A stretch of 64,000 nt of DNA from assembly GCF_003991155.1 (NCBI RefSeq), contig NZ_CP031297.1. One strand, 5' to 3'. Numbering within the stretch: the first letter of the stretch is position 1; each line of letters begins with the position of its first letter. Below, piece after piece: positions 6,001 to 33,000 of this stretch. The position numbers are program-made. The DNA is from Escherichia coli. GTDB taxonomy: Bacteria; Pseudomonadota; Gammaproteobacteria; Enterobacterales; Enterobacteriaceae.

Positions 6001-9000
6001 TCAGGTGCTGTTGATTCGTTCTTCCAGCCTGTAGAGCAGTTTGTTGATCAACTCATTGACCAGCTCAAAGAGCAAGTCAAAGAAGTGATGATGGATGTCA
6101 TGAAATCAGCAGGCCAAGATGCAGCAACAGAGCAGGCGGCTGCCGCAGCATCTGAACAAGCTGCCGAAGCAATGATGGAGACTGCGACAACATGGCTTAG
6201 CACTGCCATGACGATATATACCGTCTATGTCGTTGCGATGGTGATGATCCAGATGATTTATAAGTGCGAGGAAGAAGAGTTCACTATGAACGCAAAAAGA
6301 GCGCTCAAGAATTGCACCTATGTAGGCTCTTATTGTAAATCTAAGGTGTTGGGCGCTTGTATTGAAAAAAGAGAAGCGTATTGCTGCTTCAATTCTCCGC
6401 TCTCTCGTATTATACAAGAACAGGTTCGCCCTCAATTGGGGCAGAACTTTGGAGACCCCAAAAATCCTCAGTGTGAAGGGATTCCACTAGATAAAATTGC
6501 CGAAATTGATTGGAGCAAAATTAATTTGGATGAGTGGCTTGGGATATTACAGCAGAACGGTAAATTCCCTGATCCGGCCTCAATAAATCTCGACTCGCTG
6601 ACTGGAGCAGGGAATGACTTCAATATTGACGGGACGCGGAAGAATGCTCAGGAAAGGGCGTTGGAGCGGTTGGAAGGGATTGATATTGACGCGAAGCGAA
6701 AAGAGGCGACAAACAGCATAGACCCTCAAACAGGCGCGCCAACTGGTGGTGGATAAAAAAAGGGGCCTTTCGGCCCCTTTCTCATGTAGATTGATTACGC
6801 TTCTGGGTAAACAAATAACTCTGCTTTTCCCTGATCAAGAAGGTAAGGGAAAGCAACTTTTTCGCCATTATCCAGCTCAACCGATTTTGGAGCAAGGTAG
6901 AGGTAGGCCCAAGCTGGTAGCTGTTTGCTAATAGCTGCGTAGATCGCTTGCTGAGGAGCATGGCTTGCTGCCCCATTACCGACATTCACAAAGTTGTATG
7001 CGGTCTCATGGCCTGATGTGAAGGCATACGCTGTACCTTGAACGCCAGAGACAAAATTAGGAGCTGACCCTAGGCGAGGCTCCACGATTTTCACCTTAAC
7101 GGAACACATGTCAGCTACCTTACTTTGTCCGTTCACCCACGTCGGGCAACCCCATTCATTCTTGTAGAACTGATAGGTTAGGCGACCGTCTTTGTCATAC
7201 AGAAGCGTGAAATTGGCACCCAAATCAGTCAGCGCTGACTCAATGGAAACTTTCACATGTGAAAGAAATTTGGCCTGAGCGTCTGCCGGTGAAACTGCTT
7301 CGTTAGCAGGCATCCAAGCGATCAAGCTATTGCGAGCGCCATGCTGTTTGGGGCCGATAGCCCAGTTCGCAAGGTTGACCAAGCCACCTTGCCAGTCGGT
7401 CATTCCGAGCTGAGGGGACATGTAGCCAGACAGCACGTAGGCTGCCCCAAACGTTTTGGTGTCGGTCAGACGCTCCAGCTTGTCACGCGGAACAGAAGCG
7501 TCTTGGATGCCTGTTACCAGGCCACCGGCCTCCGCGATGTTGTAAGCGCGACTGTGATTGGTTTTGTACGCTGTGGGTTCGTAACTGCTGGTGGATGCAC
7601 AGCCAGATAGAGCTGCTACAGCCAGAGCCACGGTGGTGATTAAAGCCTTTTTCATGTTGTTCTCCGTTCTTACCTGAGTTGAATCTGATTTACTTCGATA
7701 ATATCACAGCATCAAAAAATGCAACCATAAAAGACAAAAAAAAGCCCCTCGGGCGAGGGGCAAAGGTTTGGGCTGGGTTATGCTGCTTTTGTTTTCTCGG
7801 CTTCGTCTGCGATTTCCTTGTCGCCGGTTGCAGATTCCGGAGCGGCTTCGGCCACTTCACCTTCTTTGCCTTTGCTGTGGGCGGAAATGCGAGCCCGTTT
7901 CTCGATGCCGATGATTCGACCGGCCAGCTTGATGAGGCGTTGCTGCCATTGGTAAGTGGCGTCGGTGCGCTGCTTGCTGGTCAGTACGGTGTTCAGCCAG
8001 AGAGTGTCAACGATCCCCATCAGGGTATCCAGTTTGCGGATCAGGTGTGCAAACTGAGCAACCTGAGGAGAGTTGATCTCGATGGTGTATTCATTCGGGT
8101 TGGTGTAGCCGGGCATCATGTCGATGCCGTTGTCTTCCATCAGCTTGTTGAGCTGGGCGGTAGCTTTGTCCAGGTCTTCGGAGACCTTGGAAATGTGTTC
8201 CAGGATGACGGTTTCAACCTGGTCGATTTCGTCCTGCTCACCGATGATGCGAAGGATCACGTCGATGGAGAACAGGGAGTTGGAAACTCGCTCAAAGCTG
8301 CGTTCCATGACGCGCTGAGCTTGGAGGCTGTTTACTTTCAGAACTTGCTTGAAAACAGGGCGAGAGTAGTGGTTGCTGCGGTCGTTGTTTGTGTCCAGTG
8401 CTACTTGTGCTTCTGCCATTAGAGATACTCCTAAATTTGAGGTACAGATAAACGCACTGGAAAGGATAAATGCGGTCAATCTGTAACCTGACCTCTCGAA
8501 GTGCCCAAAATGGACAGTTACAGCGTTTTCTGTTTAGCAAAGGTGAGCTATATTTGAATCATCTTAGTCGCTCTGCGGCTATAGGTGAGATAGCTGGTCT
8601 CCGAAAACAAACAGCATCTAGTCTTATGCCGTATGGCATTACTTAACCCCAAGCCGGGGGCTTCTCCCGGTTTTCGGGTGTTGCCCCTGTTTTTTTTACA
8701 TAGGAGCAACACCATGCACATCATCACTTTCATTGTAGTTCTGCTTGCATCTCTGGGCGCACTGTACGTAGGCGCGAAGGCATTTGCTTTTTCCTTCATC
8801 GTTCTCGCTAAAGTGTTCCAGCGTATCGGTTTGTTCCTTTGGAACAAATTCGCAGTTCCTGCAATGCGGTCTGTACAGGCCGTCATCAAAGAACGTGCTG
8901 CCAAGGCTGAACAAGCCAAAGCAGTCGTTGAACCTGAGGTAACTCAAGTTCAAGAAGTCGCTAAACAAGAACCTGACTGGGATTATCTCGAAATCCCGAC

Positions 9001-30000: not shown

Positions 30001-33000
30001 TAATTCAAATTTCGGCTTTCTAGCTCTGGCCTTGCGCCAACGCCTGATCAAACGCTGGTCACTGATGCACTCTGTTCAACCGGAGTCTGTGTTGGAACAC
30101 AGCGCTGTTGTTACCCTGCTTTCCTACCTGGCTGGCAATATTGCCATTCAGCAAGGGAAGTCGGTGGATCTGGCAGTCATGCTTGCTCATGCTTCGTTGC
30201 ATGATGCAGCCGAGGTTCTCTGTTCGGATGTTGTAACACCGGTCAAGAAAGCAAACGCTGTTTTGCAGCGTGAGTTTGAACGACTGGAAAAGGCCGCAGA
30301 GGACAAACTCATCCAGACTCTTCCCGAAGAACTCCAGGATGCAGTCGCCATAGCCTTCGCTCCCGGTGGCTATGAACAATCACTGGTTAAGGCCTGTGAT
30401 ACCTACTCCGCTTACATCAAGTGCAAACTTGAGGTGGCCGCAGGTAATGGCCTTGAGTTCCAGGATGCTCTCAGCAAAATGGAACGTGTTGTTGCTCAGG
30501 TGAAATCGGACTTCCCGGAAATCGACGCTCTGGACAAATGGTTTGGTAACGGACTCGGCCATTCAGTAGATAAACTGCTGGCAGGGGGTAACGATGACTA
30601 ATCCAATCCCTGGCGACATCAAGATTAAGGACTTTGGCCGCGACCGGAAATTCCGTTCGGTTGATGAGCTTCAAAGCACTTTGTCAGAACAGTACAAAGG
30701 TCAGCATGTCAGCATCGTTTACCCTGCAAAGCCCAGCGGTTTACTCCGCACGGTTTTTGTCAGTGTCGATGATGCTGGTGGCGTGAATCGAACCTATGGG
30801 GACCAGTCTCCTGTCGATTTTTCTGCCATCAAAGATGACCTGTATGTACCAAGTGACCTGTAGGAGAGCACTAGCTATGGTGGTGATCATCGTAAACACA
30901 GGACACTATGAGTTTATCGGCCTTGGTGAGACCCACGGACAAGCCACAGAAGGGCTTTTGAAACGCTGGGACGAACACTGCGAACGTAATCCGGATGCTG
31001 AGTCTGGTTACATGCAGGAGCTGATAGAAGAAGGAAGCGCACAAGTTGTCGAGATGGAGCCCGGCTCCGCCGTAATTTACGGACTTGACGGCTAAGCCTT
31101 CTCAACTAACCCACTCGGGCGCATCATCCCGAGAGGGTGTGGTGCGTCCTAACCAAAAGGAATGCACTATGTCTAACTTTGAACAAGCTCTGGAGCGTAC
31201 TGACGGTAAAACACTGATTCTCAGCAATGGGAGTAAGTGGGCAGGCCAAGACCCGGACAGTATTCAGACTTTACTGGATGTCCTGGGTGACAACGTTCTT
31301 GACCCGATGTTTGAGCAGTATCACTGTTATCGCCCATACCCGTTTGAACCAATGGTGAGGACGGGGCGAAATGGCGAAATGTTCCAGCCTTGGCTTGGGG
31401 CAGCCTGCTTCTTTGGGAACTTCCTGACTGTCTCTCATGTTTTCAACATCATCACGAAAGATGACGGTGTTGTTGAGGCCTTAACAGAGGCGATCCGGAA
31501 GAATATGGCGACTGAACAGTACCAGCAGAATGCCTATGAGCGTTATGCCGGTTGGTTCTACGCTGAAACCAGCGAAGGGTTAAGGCTAGTCTCTCCAAGT
31601 GAGGCTGCCGACATCCGAGCTGGCGCAGTTTCAAAGCTGCGTTACCCAAGAAACTTCGAGGTTATGAAAACTGCGGTTCTCAAAGGTCCTCGATTTGATA
31701 CTGAATTAAGCCGCAAGGCTTCTTAACCCAAACATTAACCCCACGGGGGACATCGGTCCCTGAGGGGATGGTGTCTCCCTCTGAAATTAAGGAGATACCA
31801 ATGATTAAACAGCATTTTCAAAACGAACTGGTTAAGTGTGGATACCCGGATGATCTGACGATTGAGTACAGTCTCGGATACTGCCAGGGGGATGGCGTAG
31901 CCTTCTACGGGGATTTGAGCGTTGATGACGTCAAAGCTCTCATGAATCGCCTATTCAGCACTGAGCCCGGCCAAGTGGATGCTGTCAGCCGCGTGAAGAA
32001 CCTGATGGCACAGAAAGACATTGAGAATATGCTTTCTGTCCTCCGCGAATATGGTTCCTGTGACCTGTCCATTACTCGGAATAGTCACGGGCATCACTAC
32101 AGCCATTGGAACTGCATGAACATCGACGACAACGTGGACTTCACAGGGATCTTCCCTGATGATGATTCCATGATTGGCACCGGCATTGAAGGGATTAACC
32201 AGGATATGGTCGAGCGCTGGCAAGACCTCTGGGAACGCTTTGTGCTGGAGCTGGCGGATGATGTAAAAAGTCTTTCCAAGAAGCTCGAAGCGGACGGGTA
32301 CTCGCTGATCGAGGCCTCTCCATGCGAAGATGAAGTGGTTTGGGAACGGGCCACTGAAAACTACCTGGTGCGTGTTACTGAACTCCCTGAGCGGGATTTC
32401 GATATGGGCCACTGGGATGACGAAGTAAGAGACCAAACAATTTGTTCTATCCTGGAAGGGAAAGAGCGAGTGCTTGGCCTACGTGTTGAGGTACTCTCTC
32501 GTGAAAACGAGATTGTCCTGGGTGAAGAGAGTCTGCACGGCTTGACCGTTGCCAGTGATGACAAGAGCTACGCTGGCTACAGACGAGAACTTCTCCGGGG
32601 AGCTATCCAGCAAACCAGGGACTTTTTCTCTCGCCACCTCAAAGCGGCATAACAAGGCAGGGGGAAACCCCTGCTTTACTTCCCAAGTCTTCTTACTCAT
32701 GGTGAATACCATCAGTAAGCAGATTTTGTTCTCTTCGGAGAGCGAAAAGTGCGATAGCTGGTCGCCAAAAACAAACAGCAAATTAACGTTAATTTATTAA
32801 TCCCTGCGGGAGTCTATCTCCTGCTGGAGATACCTCCCGTTATTTCTGGAAGTATCCATGAACAAATTCCAAGACTTTAAGTTGGTTTATCGTCAAGGTG
32901 GTCGTCGCTTAGAGCGTGTCTTTACGGACACTCTTTACGCGAATGTGAAGCGTGTCGCTGACTCGTTTCCTCCGACCGTTCTTTGGCGCATTCAGCCAGC

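Follow-up and report, generated by a model that had tools for sequence, protein, structure and literature searches.

Plasmids of the IncC group carry intergenic direct repeats, named rptIa-f, which Bet/Exo uses to repair the plasmid after it has been cut by Cas (Roy et al. 2020, NAR 48:8815, PMC7498323). That study treats the repeats as recombination substrates and also notes a 32-bp identity with SGI1, palindromes and a predicted fold that sequesters the ribosome-binding site (RBS) of vcrx089. An RNA motif, covariation, a pseudoknot, a copy in SXT/R391, a second copy in SGI1 and the environmental breadth are not part of the description. Here we analyse the same DNA in a stretch of 64,000 nucleotides from Escherichia coli (contig NZ_CP031297.1, assembly GCF_003991155.1), in the following called the window. 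A sequence-only reading of the window had pointed to a composite element around the heptamer TAGCTGG, had likened its core to the ops site of RfaH and had taken the element to be undescribed. As DNA repeats the copies are published under the name rptI, but a description as an RNA element was not found; the literature on IncC and SXT does not appear to contain one as antitermination element, pseudoknot or RNA motif. The repeats are already known, and the RNA motif, the pseudoknot, the modular context and the breadth appear to be new. Most likely, the repeats are not RfaH ops sites but represent an mRNA leader which is conserved and highly structured and has a small, probable pseudoknot at its centre. 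Multidrug resistance spreads to a large extent on IncC plasmids, SXT/R391 elements and SGI1, and the region headed by these modules encodes the survival of restriction and CRISPR in a new host (hde operon, PMC7498323).

The window contains IncC backbone, of which positions 8000-20000 are 100% identical to many IncC plasmids. The copies lie in a region bounded by traN and a toprim gene, corresponding to vcrx087 to vcrx121 of pVCR94, which encodes the hde operon (ATPase, vcrx090, ssb, bet, exo), several DNA methylases and many unknown open reading frames (ORFs). TAGCTGG is found 13 times in the window, with 5.7 ± 2.3 expected. Eight of these sites, all on the plus strand, have the full composite context (8591, 9635, 14470, 18302, 22716, 26498, 29639 and 32755); the others are free of it (19501, 56232 and 62659 on the plus strand, 11325 and 49762 on the minus strand). 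The tail AAACAAACAGCA has nine matches with at most one mismatch in the window, where 0.42 are expected. The 4-bp stem flanking the loop (S1) reads GCGA/TCGC in four copies, further GAGA/TCTC, GAGG/CCTC, GCGG/CTGC with one G·U pair, and ACGG/CCCA in a degenerate copy. A covariance model trained on 30 copies from four plasmids retrieves precisely the eight copies from the window, all on the plus strand, and no further copy from the remaining 70 kb of pVCR94. Composite pattern and covariance model thus agree with the sequence-only reading on eight copies on one strand, which is the sense strand, each heading a gene block, and the stems are as it had listed them. Its fifth position, 22725, is off by 9. 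The tail is exact in seven copies and shortened to CCCAAAACAGCA in copy 7 (29639).

Covariation statistics were computed on 53 copies. S1 is paired to 97% and has double changes at three of its four pairs. A small hairpin further upstream (HP1), for which covariation had been claimed before, is paired to 81%, covaries at six of six pairs and exists in three unrelated sequence forms, so that both small hairpins covary. The covariation score exceeds those of all 500 shuffles, and it collapses in slid controls. Since G·U and U·G pairs outnumber A·C and C·A pairs by 47 to 6, the fold belongs to the sense strand.

These numbers bear on the idea that the repeats are selected at the DNA level, namely as direct repeats offering Bet/Exo homology for single-strand-annealing repair of double-strand breaks, with the hairpins being incidental or Chi-like pause sites for Exo. 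The published deletions of 23,702, 10,310 and 9,268 bp equal exactly the distances in pVCR94deltaX between copies 2 and 8, 1 and 4, and 2 and 4, respectively, and Bet/Exo deletions most often involve copies 2 and 8 (Roy et al. 2020, PMC7498323). All copies are direct repeats, and copies 2, 3 and 8 (9544-9700, 14379-14540 and 32664-32820) have about 100 identical bases in common, far above the other copies, an excess which suggests gene conversion between copies. However, selection for homology predicts identity and not compensation, whereas HP1 has three unrelated forms and S1 at least 16. The G·U bias indicates one strand, the single copy of SXT/R391 has no partner, the two copies of SGI1 sit in promoter leaders, and the element holds a fixed position from the transcription start site (TSS) to the RBS. 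We consider this explanation improbable; the use of the repeats by Bet/Exo in deletion repair is real but a secondary consequence. A Chi-like reading of the core (GCTGGTCG versus GCTGGTGG) was rejected, as GCTGG alone is conserved and the remainder is free-sequence stem.

The invariant loop is complementary to the invariant tail, loop GCUG pairing with tail CAGC in a second helix (S2) which is 99.5% paired. At alignment pair 48-64 there are 48 G-C and four A-U pairs, and at pair 45-67 there are 46 G-C, four G·U, one A-U and one other combination. A change from G-C to A-U in S2 gives the variant GCUA with UAGC, which is found in SXT/R391, in one Paraglaciecola copy and in an unrelated viral contig; one further copy has ACUG with CAGU, and several copies have G·U. 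In the metagenome copies with perfect S1 among the matches listed (73), the variable S2 pair is solely G/C (65) or A/U (8), while chance metagenome matches display all four combinations at this pair. A descriptor which leaves both helices free in sequence found 190 sites, against none in shuffled sequence. The loop that had been singled out as invariant is more readily understood as one strand of the helix formed by loop and tail. From 5′ to 3′ the parts are S1 with 4 bp of free sequence, loop L1 (UA), S2 (GCUG/CAGC), loop L2 with a single invariant G, and the A-rich loop L3 of about 10 nt. We suggest that the core is probably a small H-type pseudoknot with an A-rich third loop: a hairpin loop pairs with sequence located 3′ and compensatory change occurs, in few independent events. 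In a short form, seen in copy 7, the Edwardsiella plasmid, the SGI1 P5 leader and metagenome loci, S1 is nearly lost and GCUG/CAGC is the minimum-free-energy hairpin (−6.1 kcal/mol for copy 7).

The viral contig just mentioned (IMG/VR IMGVR_UViG_3300022166_001763, 1.6 kb, unrelated) contains at 820-930 two tandem units of the same pseudoknot design inside an outer stem, GUCG-UAGCUAG-CGAC-GUUAAAUAAA-UAGC followed by GUCG-UAGCUCGG-CGAC...GAGC, without a match in Rfam. A mini-ORF of the form GUG-NNN-UAG across the loop was also considered; by eye it is not conserved among the copies, and it was rejected.

With the structure of the core at hand, the comparison to ops can be made in detail. According to the sequence-only reading the core lies very near ops, and host RfaH or a NusG paralogue of the plasmid would recognise it in the non-template DNA strand as they would ops. 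Indeed the F-plasmid tra operons use RfaH, TAG is common to the core and ops, and copy 6 matches eight of the ten specified ops positions. Yet seven of the eight copies have at least three mismatches to GGCGGTAGnnTG over its ten specified positions, copy 6 alone being within two, and near-matches with up to two mismatches occur in the window at chance level (48 versus 51 ± 8 expected). Ops position 5 is A in half of the copies and covaries as a base pair with a partner 8 nt downstream (A-U 25, G-C 24), whereas G5 and T6 of ops are said, by Zuber and coworkers in 2018, to be unpaired and specifically read. Position 11, a T in ops, is G in every copy, and a hairpin of 15 nt together with a tail of 14 nt would exceed the transcription bubble. 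The Rfam model JUMPstart has no match at E ≤ 5 in 8000-33500. A NusG-like gene elsewhere on the plasmid, which the sequence-only reading had asked for, is not annotated on pVCR94, and the Pfam search of 20 small ORFs of the region returned DNA methylase only, without a KOW or NusG domain. We consider the reading as RfaH/ops extremely improbable.

The core is embedded in a larger module of about 110-270 nt. Internal copies follow a constant order, that is, stop codon, GC hairpin, CUUUCC, inner hairpin, GGAAAG, 3-5 nt, AUUU(U)G and HP1, and this layout is maintained from IncC to GC-rich elements from metagenomes. At the 3′ side of the tail we find an AU-rich linker, a GC-rich hairpin within CCC...GGG, and a hairpin with the Shine-Dalgarno (SD) region in its 3′ arm. 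All eight leaders fold far more stably than their shuffles (z = −3.9 to −7.9), and in each of them a stem contains the SD. For the leader of the ATPase gene vcrx089 nine orthologues can be compared: two mutually exclusive foldings are both kept with compensatory changes. Folding A consists of the GC hairpin and the SD-masking hairpin; folding B is a predicted long-range helix that would free the SD. In a simple terminator scan the terminator-like T hairpins are not above chance (24 found, 20.5 expected), the scan missing them on account of their short U tracts.

An H-type pseudoknot with an A-rich third loop, mutually exclusive conserved folds which control the SD, and in SGI1 a downstream terminator-like hairpin with premature 3′ ends could also be the signs of a riboswitch for a metabolite or ion, with an aptamer of preQ1-I or SAM-II size and the alternative downstream folds as expression platform. 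But the genes that follow the eight copies are unrelated in function, L2 consists of one G and leaves no room for a pocket of the preQ1 type, no pairing joins the aptamer to the platform, and Rfam riboswitch models give no match at E ≤ 5. We regard a riboswitch as quite improbable.

Three AcaCD boxes with starts determined by 5′-RACE have been described upstream of vcrx087, vcrx098 and vcrx114 (Carraro 2014, PMC4207636); their positions in the window are given in Table 1. Placing the TSSs of Carraro's Table S3 on the sequence puts the start of the loop at about +31 for vcrx087 (copy 1) and about +28 for vcrx114 (copy 7). Copy 4 (vcrx098) has no mapped TSS and its loop begins 155 nt after the start of the box. 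HP1 starts 3-7 nt after the mapped TSS of P_vcrx087, P_vcrx114 and SGI1 P_S018. The sequence-only reading is thus borne out in assigning three copies to leaders of AcaCD promoters and five to positions behind terminator-like hairpins.

In the RNA data of Carraro (Dataset S1, PMC4207636) all genes from vcrx087 to vcrx125 are near zero without AcaCD and reach hundreds to thousands with it, a strict dependence of all those genes that contrasts with just three boxes. A single transcript runs from vcrx087 to vcrx094 across copies 2 and 3, as judged by RT-PCR (Roy et al. 2020, PMC7498323). The RNA level of vcrx097 falls to 56 (Carraro Dataset S1, PMC4207636), a drop of about 25-50-fold past the canonical terminator behind vcrx095, where the first long transcription unit ends. 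Sigma-70-like sites are strongly underrepresented in 8000-27900 (three found, 13.7 ± 3.1 expected), which fits with a region expressed from AcaCD promoters only.

The same depletion stands against internal copies being promoters that are fired by an AcaCD-induced factor. Rockhopper has operons beginning at all eight copies (Carraro Dataset S1, PMC4207636), RNA is three-fold higher after copy 8, and a motif nAGATT precedes HP1. A start 7 nt past nAGATT, however, would fall within the conserved HP1; cotranscription has been demonstrated across copies 2 and 3, and the leader copies are located downstream of the TSS, not upstream. Internal promoters are therefore very improbable.

A different explanation is processive antitermination. 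The nascent pseudoknot would modify RNA polymerase, either alone in the manner of put or EAR or together with a candidate protein as at nut, and would allow read-through of the weak terminators at the block ends (GC hairpin and CUUUCC) and of the GC-rich hairpin; the repeats would re-arm the polymerase. Five independent promoter leaders have the pseudoknot within their first 10-60 nt, and the internal copies are always preceded by a stop codon, a GC hairpin and the U-containing CUUUCC. There is no polarity across 7-11 kb, the unit ending only at a strong terminator with no copy after it. The single copy of SXT/R391 heads the long s089 operon, and in SGI1 the P5 transcripts mostly stop at the downstream GC hairpin when no helper plasmid is present. 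On the other hand, P5 does carry the element, in its short form, and still most of its RNA ends at the hairpin, so that the element is insufficient with host factors. The GC hairpins are mostly without U tracts, P_S018 requires AcaCD only, and no gene similar to NusG, N or Q was found in the pVCR94 annotation or with Pfam among the 20 small ORFs. Moreover, antitermination leaves the masking of the RBS and the 5′ hairpin unexplained. Among the rival explanations antitermination is the strongest; we think that it is possible though unlikely.

The copies are found far beyond the window. pAQU1 and an Edwardsiella plasmid have eight each and an Aeromonas plasmid at least six, in the same positions. 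Among 68 loci collected via homologues of the ATPase, elements from Alcanivorax, Marinomonas, Paraglaciecola and Marinobacterium have four to five diverged copies each, and about 50 loci of SXT/R391 type have one copy each, located in the s089 leader at the head of the long s089 operon. Absence from IncC and SXT relatives would have spoken against the element according to the sequence-only reading, but copies are present in both. The more distantly related Marinobacter pMAD49a, a Pseudomonas plasmid, Methylobacter and Thiocapsa carry the same ATPase, DUF3150 and VWA genes and have no copy. A pattern scan of metagenomes gave at least 120 loci; 73 of 129 matches listed have a perfect 4-bp S1, with 16 different stem sequences. 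The genes downstream of the metagenome copies include ssb, a YqaJ-like exonuclease, DUF3150, the ATPase, PAPS-reductase-like and ParB-like genes and others. In viral contigs nearly all matches are due to chance and lie in coding sequence. Rfam, at gathering and at permissive thresholds, assigns no family to any copy in the window, the relatives or the metagenome loci.

SGI1 (contig OX345320.1) has two copies of the module, at 5594-5720 and 7750-7890 of the locus extracted from it, and the 32 bp at 9629-9660 of the window match the SGI1 contig to 100%. One copy is in the 135-nt leader of the AcaCD-dependent S018 promoter. AcaCD alone induces a P_S018-lacZ fusion with the whole leader in E. coli; therefore no other IncC product is strictly needed, and a host factor is enough. 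The second copy, of the short form, follows promoter P5 with its loop starting at +10 from the TSS; the primary transcript of P5 yields the essential sgm-sRNA. P5 is a near-consensus promoter with very low lacZ activity at the S022 ATG, and its commonest RNA has its end 70-80 nt from the TSS, at a GC-rich 11-bp inverted repeat 66 nt downstream (Nagy 2021, PMC9299015). Additional 5′ ends, which have the appearance of cleavage products, map to +56-58 and +98-103 (PMC9299015). These P5 RNA data are from cells without helper plasmid. The terminator-like inverted repeat of Nagy 2021 is the GC-rich hairpin of the module (HP3).

The recurrent neighbourhood of ssb, exonuclease, anti-restriction and ParB-like genes raises the question whether the element could act on single-stranded plasmid DNA after transfer into the recipient, for example as a priming site or a single-stranded promoter, in parallel to Frpo/ssi before ssb, psiB and ardA on F-like plasmids. 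CTG, which is present in the loop, is the trinucleotide of the E. coli primase. The hde genes act in the recipient (PMC7498323). Nevertheless the fold is on the coding strand, which, if transferred, would be no template for these genes, the element follows the positions of TSS and RBS, and the region is 65-95 kb away from oriT. A single-stranded DNA signal is accordingly rather improbable.

Taken together, we show that a conserved RNA structure on the sense strand is placed between the TSS, or the preceding cistron, and a masked RBS, and that it is transcribed through. DNA repeats, single-stranded DNA, a riboswitch or internal promoters would each account for the data less well. We favour a cis-acting structured leader and intercistronic punctuation module that would gate translation and segment the long AcaCD-dependent transcripts, and give this proposal a probability of about 0.45, somewhat short of even; a structured leader or processing RNA had been the fallback of the sequence-only reading.

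We suggest that the module could operate as follows. It would ride on the long AcaCD-dependent transcripts of the IncC accessory region, which serves defence evasion, recombination and DNA modification. By default the RBS would be closed. The pseudoknot, the A-rich loop and the AU-rich linker are a candidate entry or recognition site for a conserved host factor, which might be a 30S/S1 standby complex or an RNA-binding protein. The factor could shift the downstream fold to the alternative long-range helix and thereby free the RBS. At internal copies an endonuclease of the RNase E type might cleave within the AU-rich stretch that separates the GGAAAG hairpin from HP1, which would cut transcripts of 7-11 kb into segments capped by hairpins at both ends.

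Several points weigh against this proposal. Both the pseudoknot and the cleavage at the AU-rich stretch are derived from sequence comparison or sequence, and the factor acting in trans is putative. As S2 is almost invariant, its support amounts to about two to three independent compensatory events, and one copy (L015:16682) has an uncompensated A·C pair. Given the strong conservation, loop and tail could each be read as single strands. Covariation between the pseudoknot and the downstream switch was not seen. The RNA levels do not fall across the terminator-like hairpins, which is equally expected under antitermination, and the single leader copy of SXT/R391 fits a leader-only, antitermination-like role equally well.

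The coordinates of the copies and of nearby features are compiled in Table 1.

Table 1. Copies of the module and neighbouring transcription signals in the window
Feature	Position	Strand	Model score and fold	Parts and remarks
AcaCD box of P_vcrx087	8501..8525	+		Carraro 2014 Table S3; mapped TSS about 35 nt downstream, at about 8559-8561
Copy 1, leader of vcrx087 primary transcript	8555..8716	+	cmsearch 65.2 bits; z = −4.6, SD in stem	HP1 AGUCGC-UCU-GCGGCU; core 8587-8615; S1 GAGA/UCUC; loop UAGCUGG 8591-8597; tail CAGC 8612-8615; 3′ part: GC-rich hairpin, then SD-masking hairpin; ATG 8714
Copy 2 (rptIb of Roy 2020), intercistronic, before vcrx089 (hde operon ATPase)	9524..9745	+	84.1 bits; z = −7.0	upstream hairpin; AUUUUG 9603; HP1 GUUCUC-UUCG-GAGAGC; core 9631-9659; HP3/HP4 switch downstream; ATG 9743
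Copy 3, before vcrx094 (DUF3150)	14379..14581	+		T hairpin GGGGGAUUUUCCCCC; CUUUCC 14397; GGAAAG 14428; AUUUUG 14438; core 14466-14494; ATG 14578
Canonical intrinsic terminator after vcrx095 (VWA gene)	17753..17782	+		13-bp stem and U run; no module after it
AcaCD box of P_vcrx098	18148..18174	+		Carraro 2014 Table S3
Copy 4, vcrx098 leader	18134..18400	+	78.6 bits; z = −5.6	CUUUCU 18231; AGAAAG 18262; AUUUUG 18271; core 18298-18326; ATG 18398
Copy 5, before vcrx107	22621..22814	+	71.7 bits; z = −5.0	CUUUCC 22628; GGAAAG 22674; AUUUUG 22684; core 22712-22740 (S1 GAGG/CCUC); ATG 22812
Copy 6, before vcrx112	26360..26594	+	63.8 bits; z = −6.2	CUUUCC 26436; GGAAAG 26470; HP1 AGUGCC-UUA-GGCGCU; core 26494-26522 (S1 GCGG/CUGC, one G·U); ATG 26592
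AcaCD box of P_vcrx114	29549..29575	+		Carraro 2014 Table S3; TSS about 29610-29612
Copy 7, short 'type II' form, vcrx114 leader	29606..29723	+	42.5 bits	HP1 GUCAGC-GCUU-GCUGGC; S1 only GG/CC; GCUG 29641-29644 with CAGC 29653-29656 as plain hairpin; ATG 29721
Copy 8 (rptIf of Roy 2020), before vcrx120	32653..32860	+	84.1 bits; z = −7.9	AUUUUG 32723; core 32751-32779; ATG 32858

Some further features of the window were noticed. The first gene after the first module, vcrx087 (8714-9034), encodes a small membrane protein with the conserved C-terminus DWDYLEIPTYLRKGKELVW; its homologue S089 of SXT (7038-7364 of the locus extracted) has LLDIPAYLRRQ at the equivalent C-terminus. The C-terminal peptide of FtsZ, DYLDIPAFLRKQ, binds FtsA and ZipA. 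The Vcrx087 C-terminus resembles this peptide, and the same family follows the copies in metagenome loci (...DWSKYDVPTFIRRG). The protein may be a cell-division modulator made early from the AcaCD/SetCD regulon. We had considered Vcrx087 and Vcrx088 as RNA-binding factors; as a membrane protein with an FtsZ-tail-like C-terminus Vcrx087 is an unlikely one, and the candidates were set aside. A weak Rfam match to ctRNA_p42d (30 bits, E = 0.005) at 29518-29552, overlapping the end of the PAPS-reductase-like gene before the vcrx114 AcaCD box, is probably a mere terminator hairpin. Matches to AAC_AAD_leader / attI at 42158-42227 (68 bits) and 47042-47113 (95 bits) point to attI sites of class 1 integrons within the window's resistance region.

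The element is small and sharply delimited and occurs widely; standing before each gene block, a single RNA of this kind would give the whole programme of surviving restriction and CRISPR a shared control point. In SGI1 one copy directly follows the promoter for the precursor of the essential small RNA for mobilisation, and the element could explain the premature RNA ends and the weak expression downstream of P5 (PMC9299015). We also consider, as an unlikely extension, that the pseudoknot is the recognition element of a new processive antitermination or operon-punctuation system across IncA/C, pAQU1-type, SXT/R391 and uncultured conjugative elements. If so, the pseudoknot would either act directly on RNA polymerase in the manner of put or be bound by an RNA-binding protein that has escaped recognition, and SGI1 would have copied the element twice such that the S018 operon and the sgm-sRNA precursor are fully expressed only in the right context. 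For SXT, strong post-transcriptional repression of bet and exo was reportedly observed by Garriss in 2013; the element could be an explanation.

How does the element compare with known systems? With ops/JUMPstart it has in common a short conserved motif containing TAG in the leaders of long horizontally acquired operons, including those for conjugation. However, the IncC element is a structure of RNA type of about 30 nt and not a 12-nt site on the non-template DNA strand, its copies deviate from the ops consensus, and the critical G5 of ops is a covarying paired base.

Closer in several respects are HK022 put, the Bacillus EAR element, boxA/boxB of lambda nut and conAn of pLS20, which likewise are structured RNAs near the start of long operons of mobile elements. 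As in these, terminator-like hairpins are read through, and a stem of free sequence is combined with a conserved loop and a conserved single-stranded stretch. In contrast to them, the IncC copies reappear within operons and go together with hairpins that mask the RBS; neither a sequence or model match nor an N-like or ConAn1-like protein was found, though the search for an N-like protein is a weak negative, Pfam having recognised none in the 20 small ORFs of the region. Unlike lambda nut, the IncC loop is a heptamer, UAGCUGG, and not a GNRA-like pentaloop, and the boxA-like CUCUU is inside a covarying stem.

The preQ1-I and SAM-II aptamers also have a hairpin of 4-5 bp, a 4-bp helix between loop and tail and an A-rich strand able to enter the minor groove of stem 1, and they too are about 30 nt in size and located upstream of a fold controlling the SD. 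In preQ1-I a multi-nucleotide L2 holds the C which pairs with the ligand. The single-nucleotide L2 of the IncC element therefore leaves no ligand pocket, and its eight copies stand before unrelated genes; the Rfam PreQ1 model has no match at E ≤ 5 in the window and at E ≤ 1 in the relatives.

Frpo/ssi and STAXI, like the element described here, are repeated structured elements beside ssb, anti-restriction and recombination genes of conjugative elements. They are thought to act as single-stranded DNA, whereas the IncC element is tied to TSS and RBS on the sense strand, and the Rfam STAXI model has no match here. Ribosome standby sites, as in the tisB +42 mRNA, present a 5′ structure and a single-stranded A/U-rich stretch before a closed RBS, and the intercistronic processing modules of pap and puf have hairpins on either side of an AU-rich cleavage site; both arrangements resemble the IncC module. 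But tisB, pap and puf are single cases without a conserved core, whereas the core of the IncC element is invariant and is reused across many families of elements.

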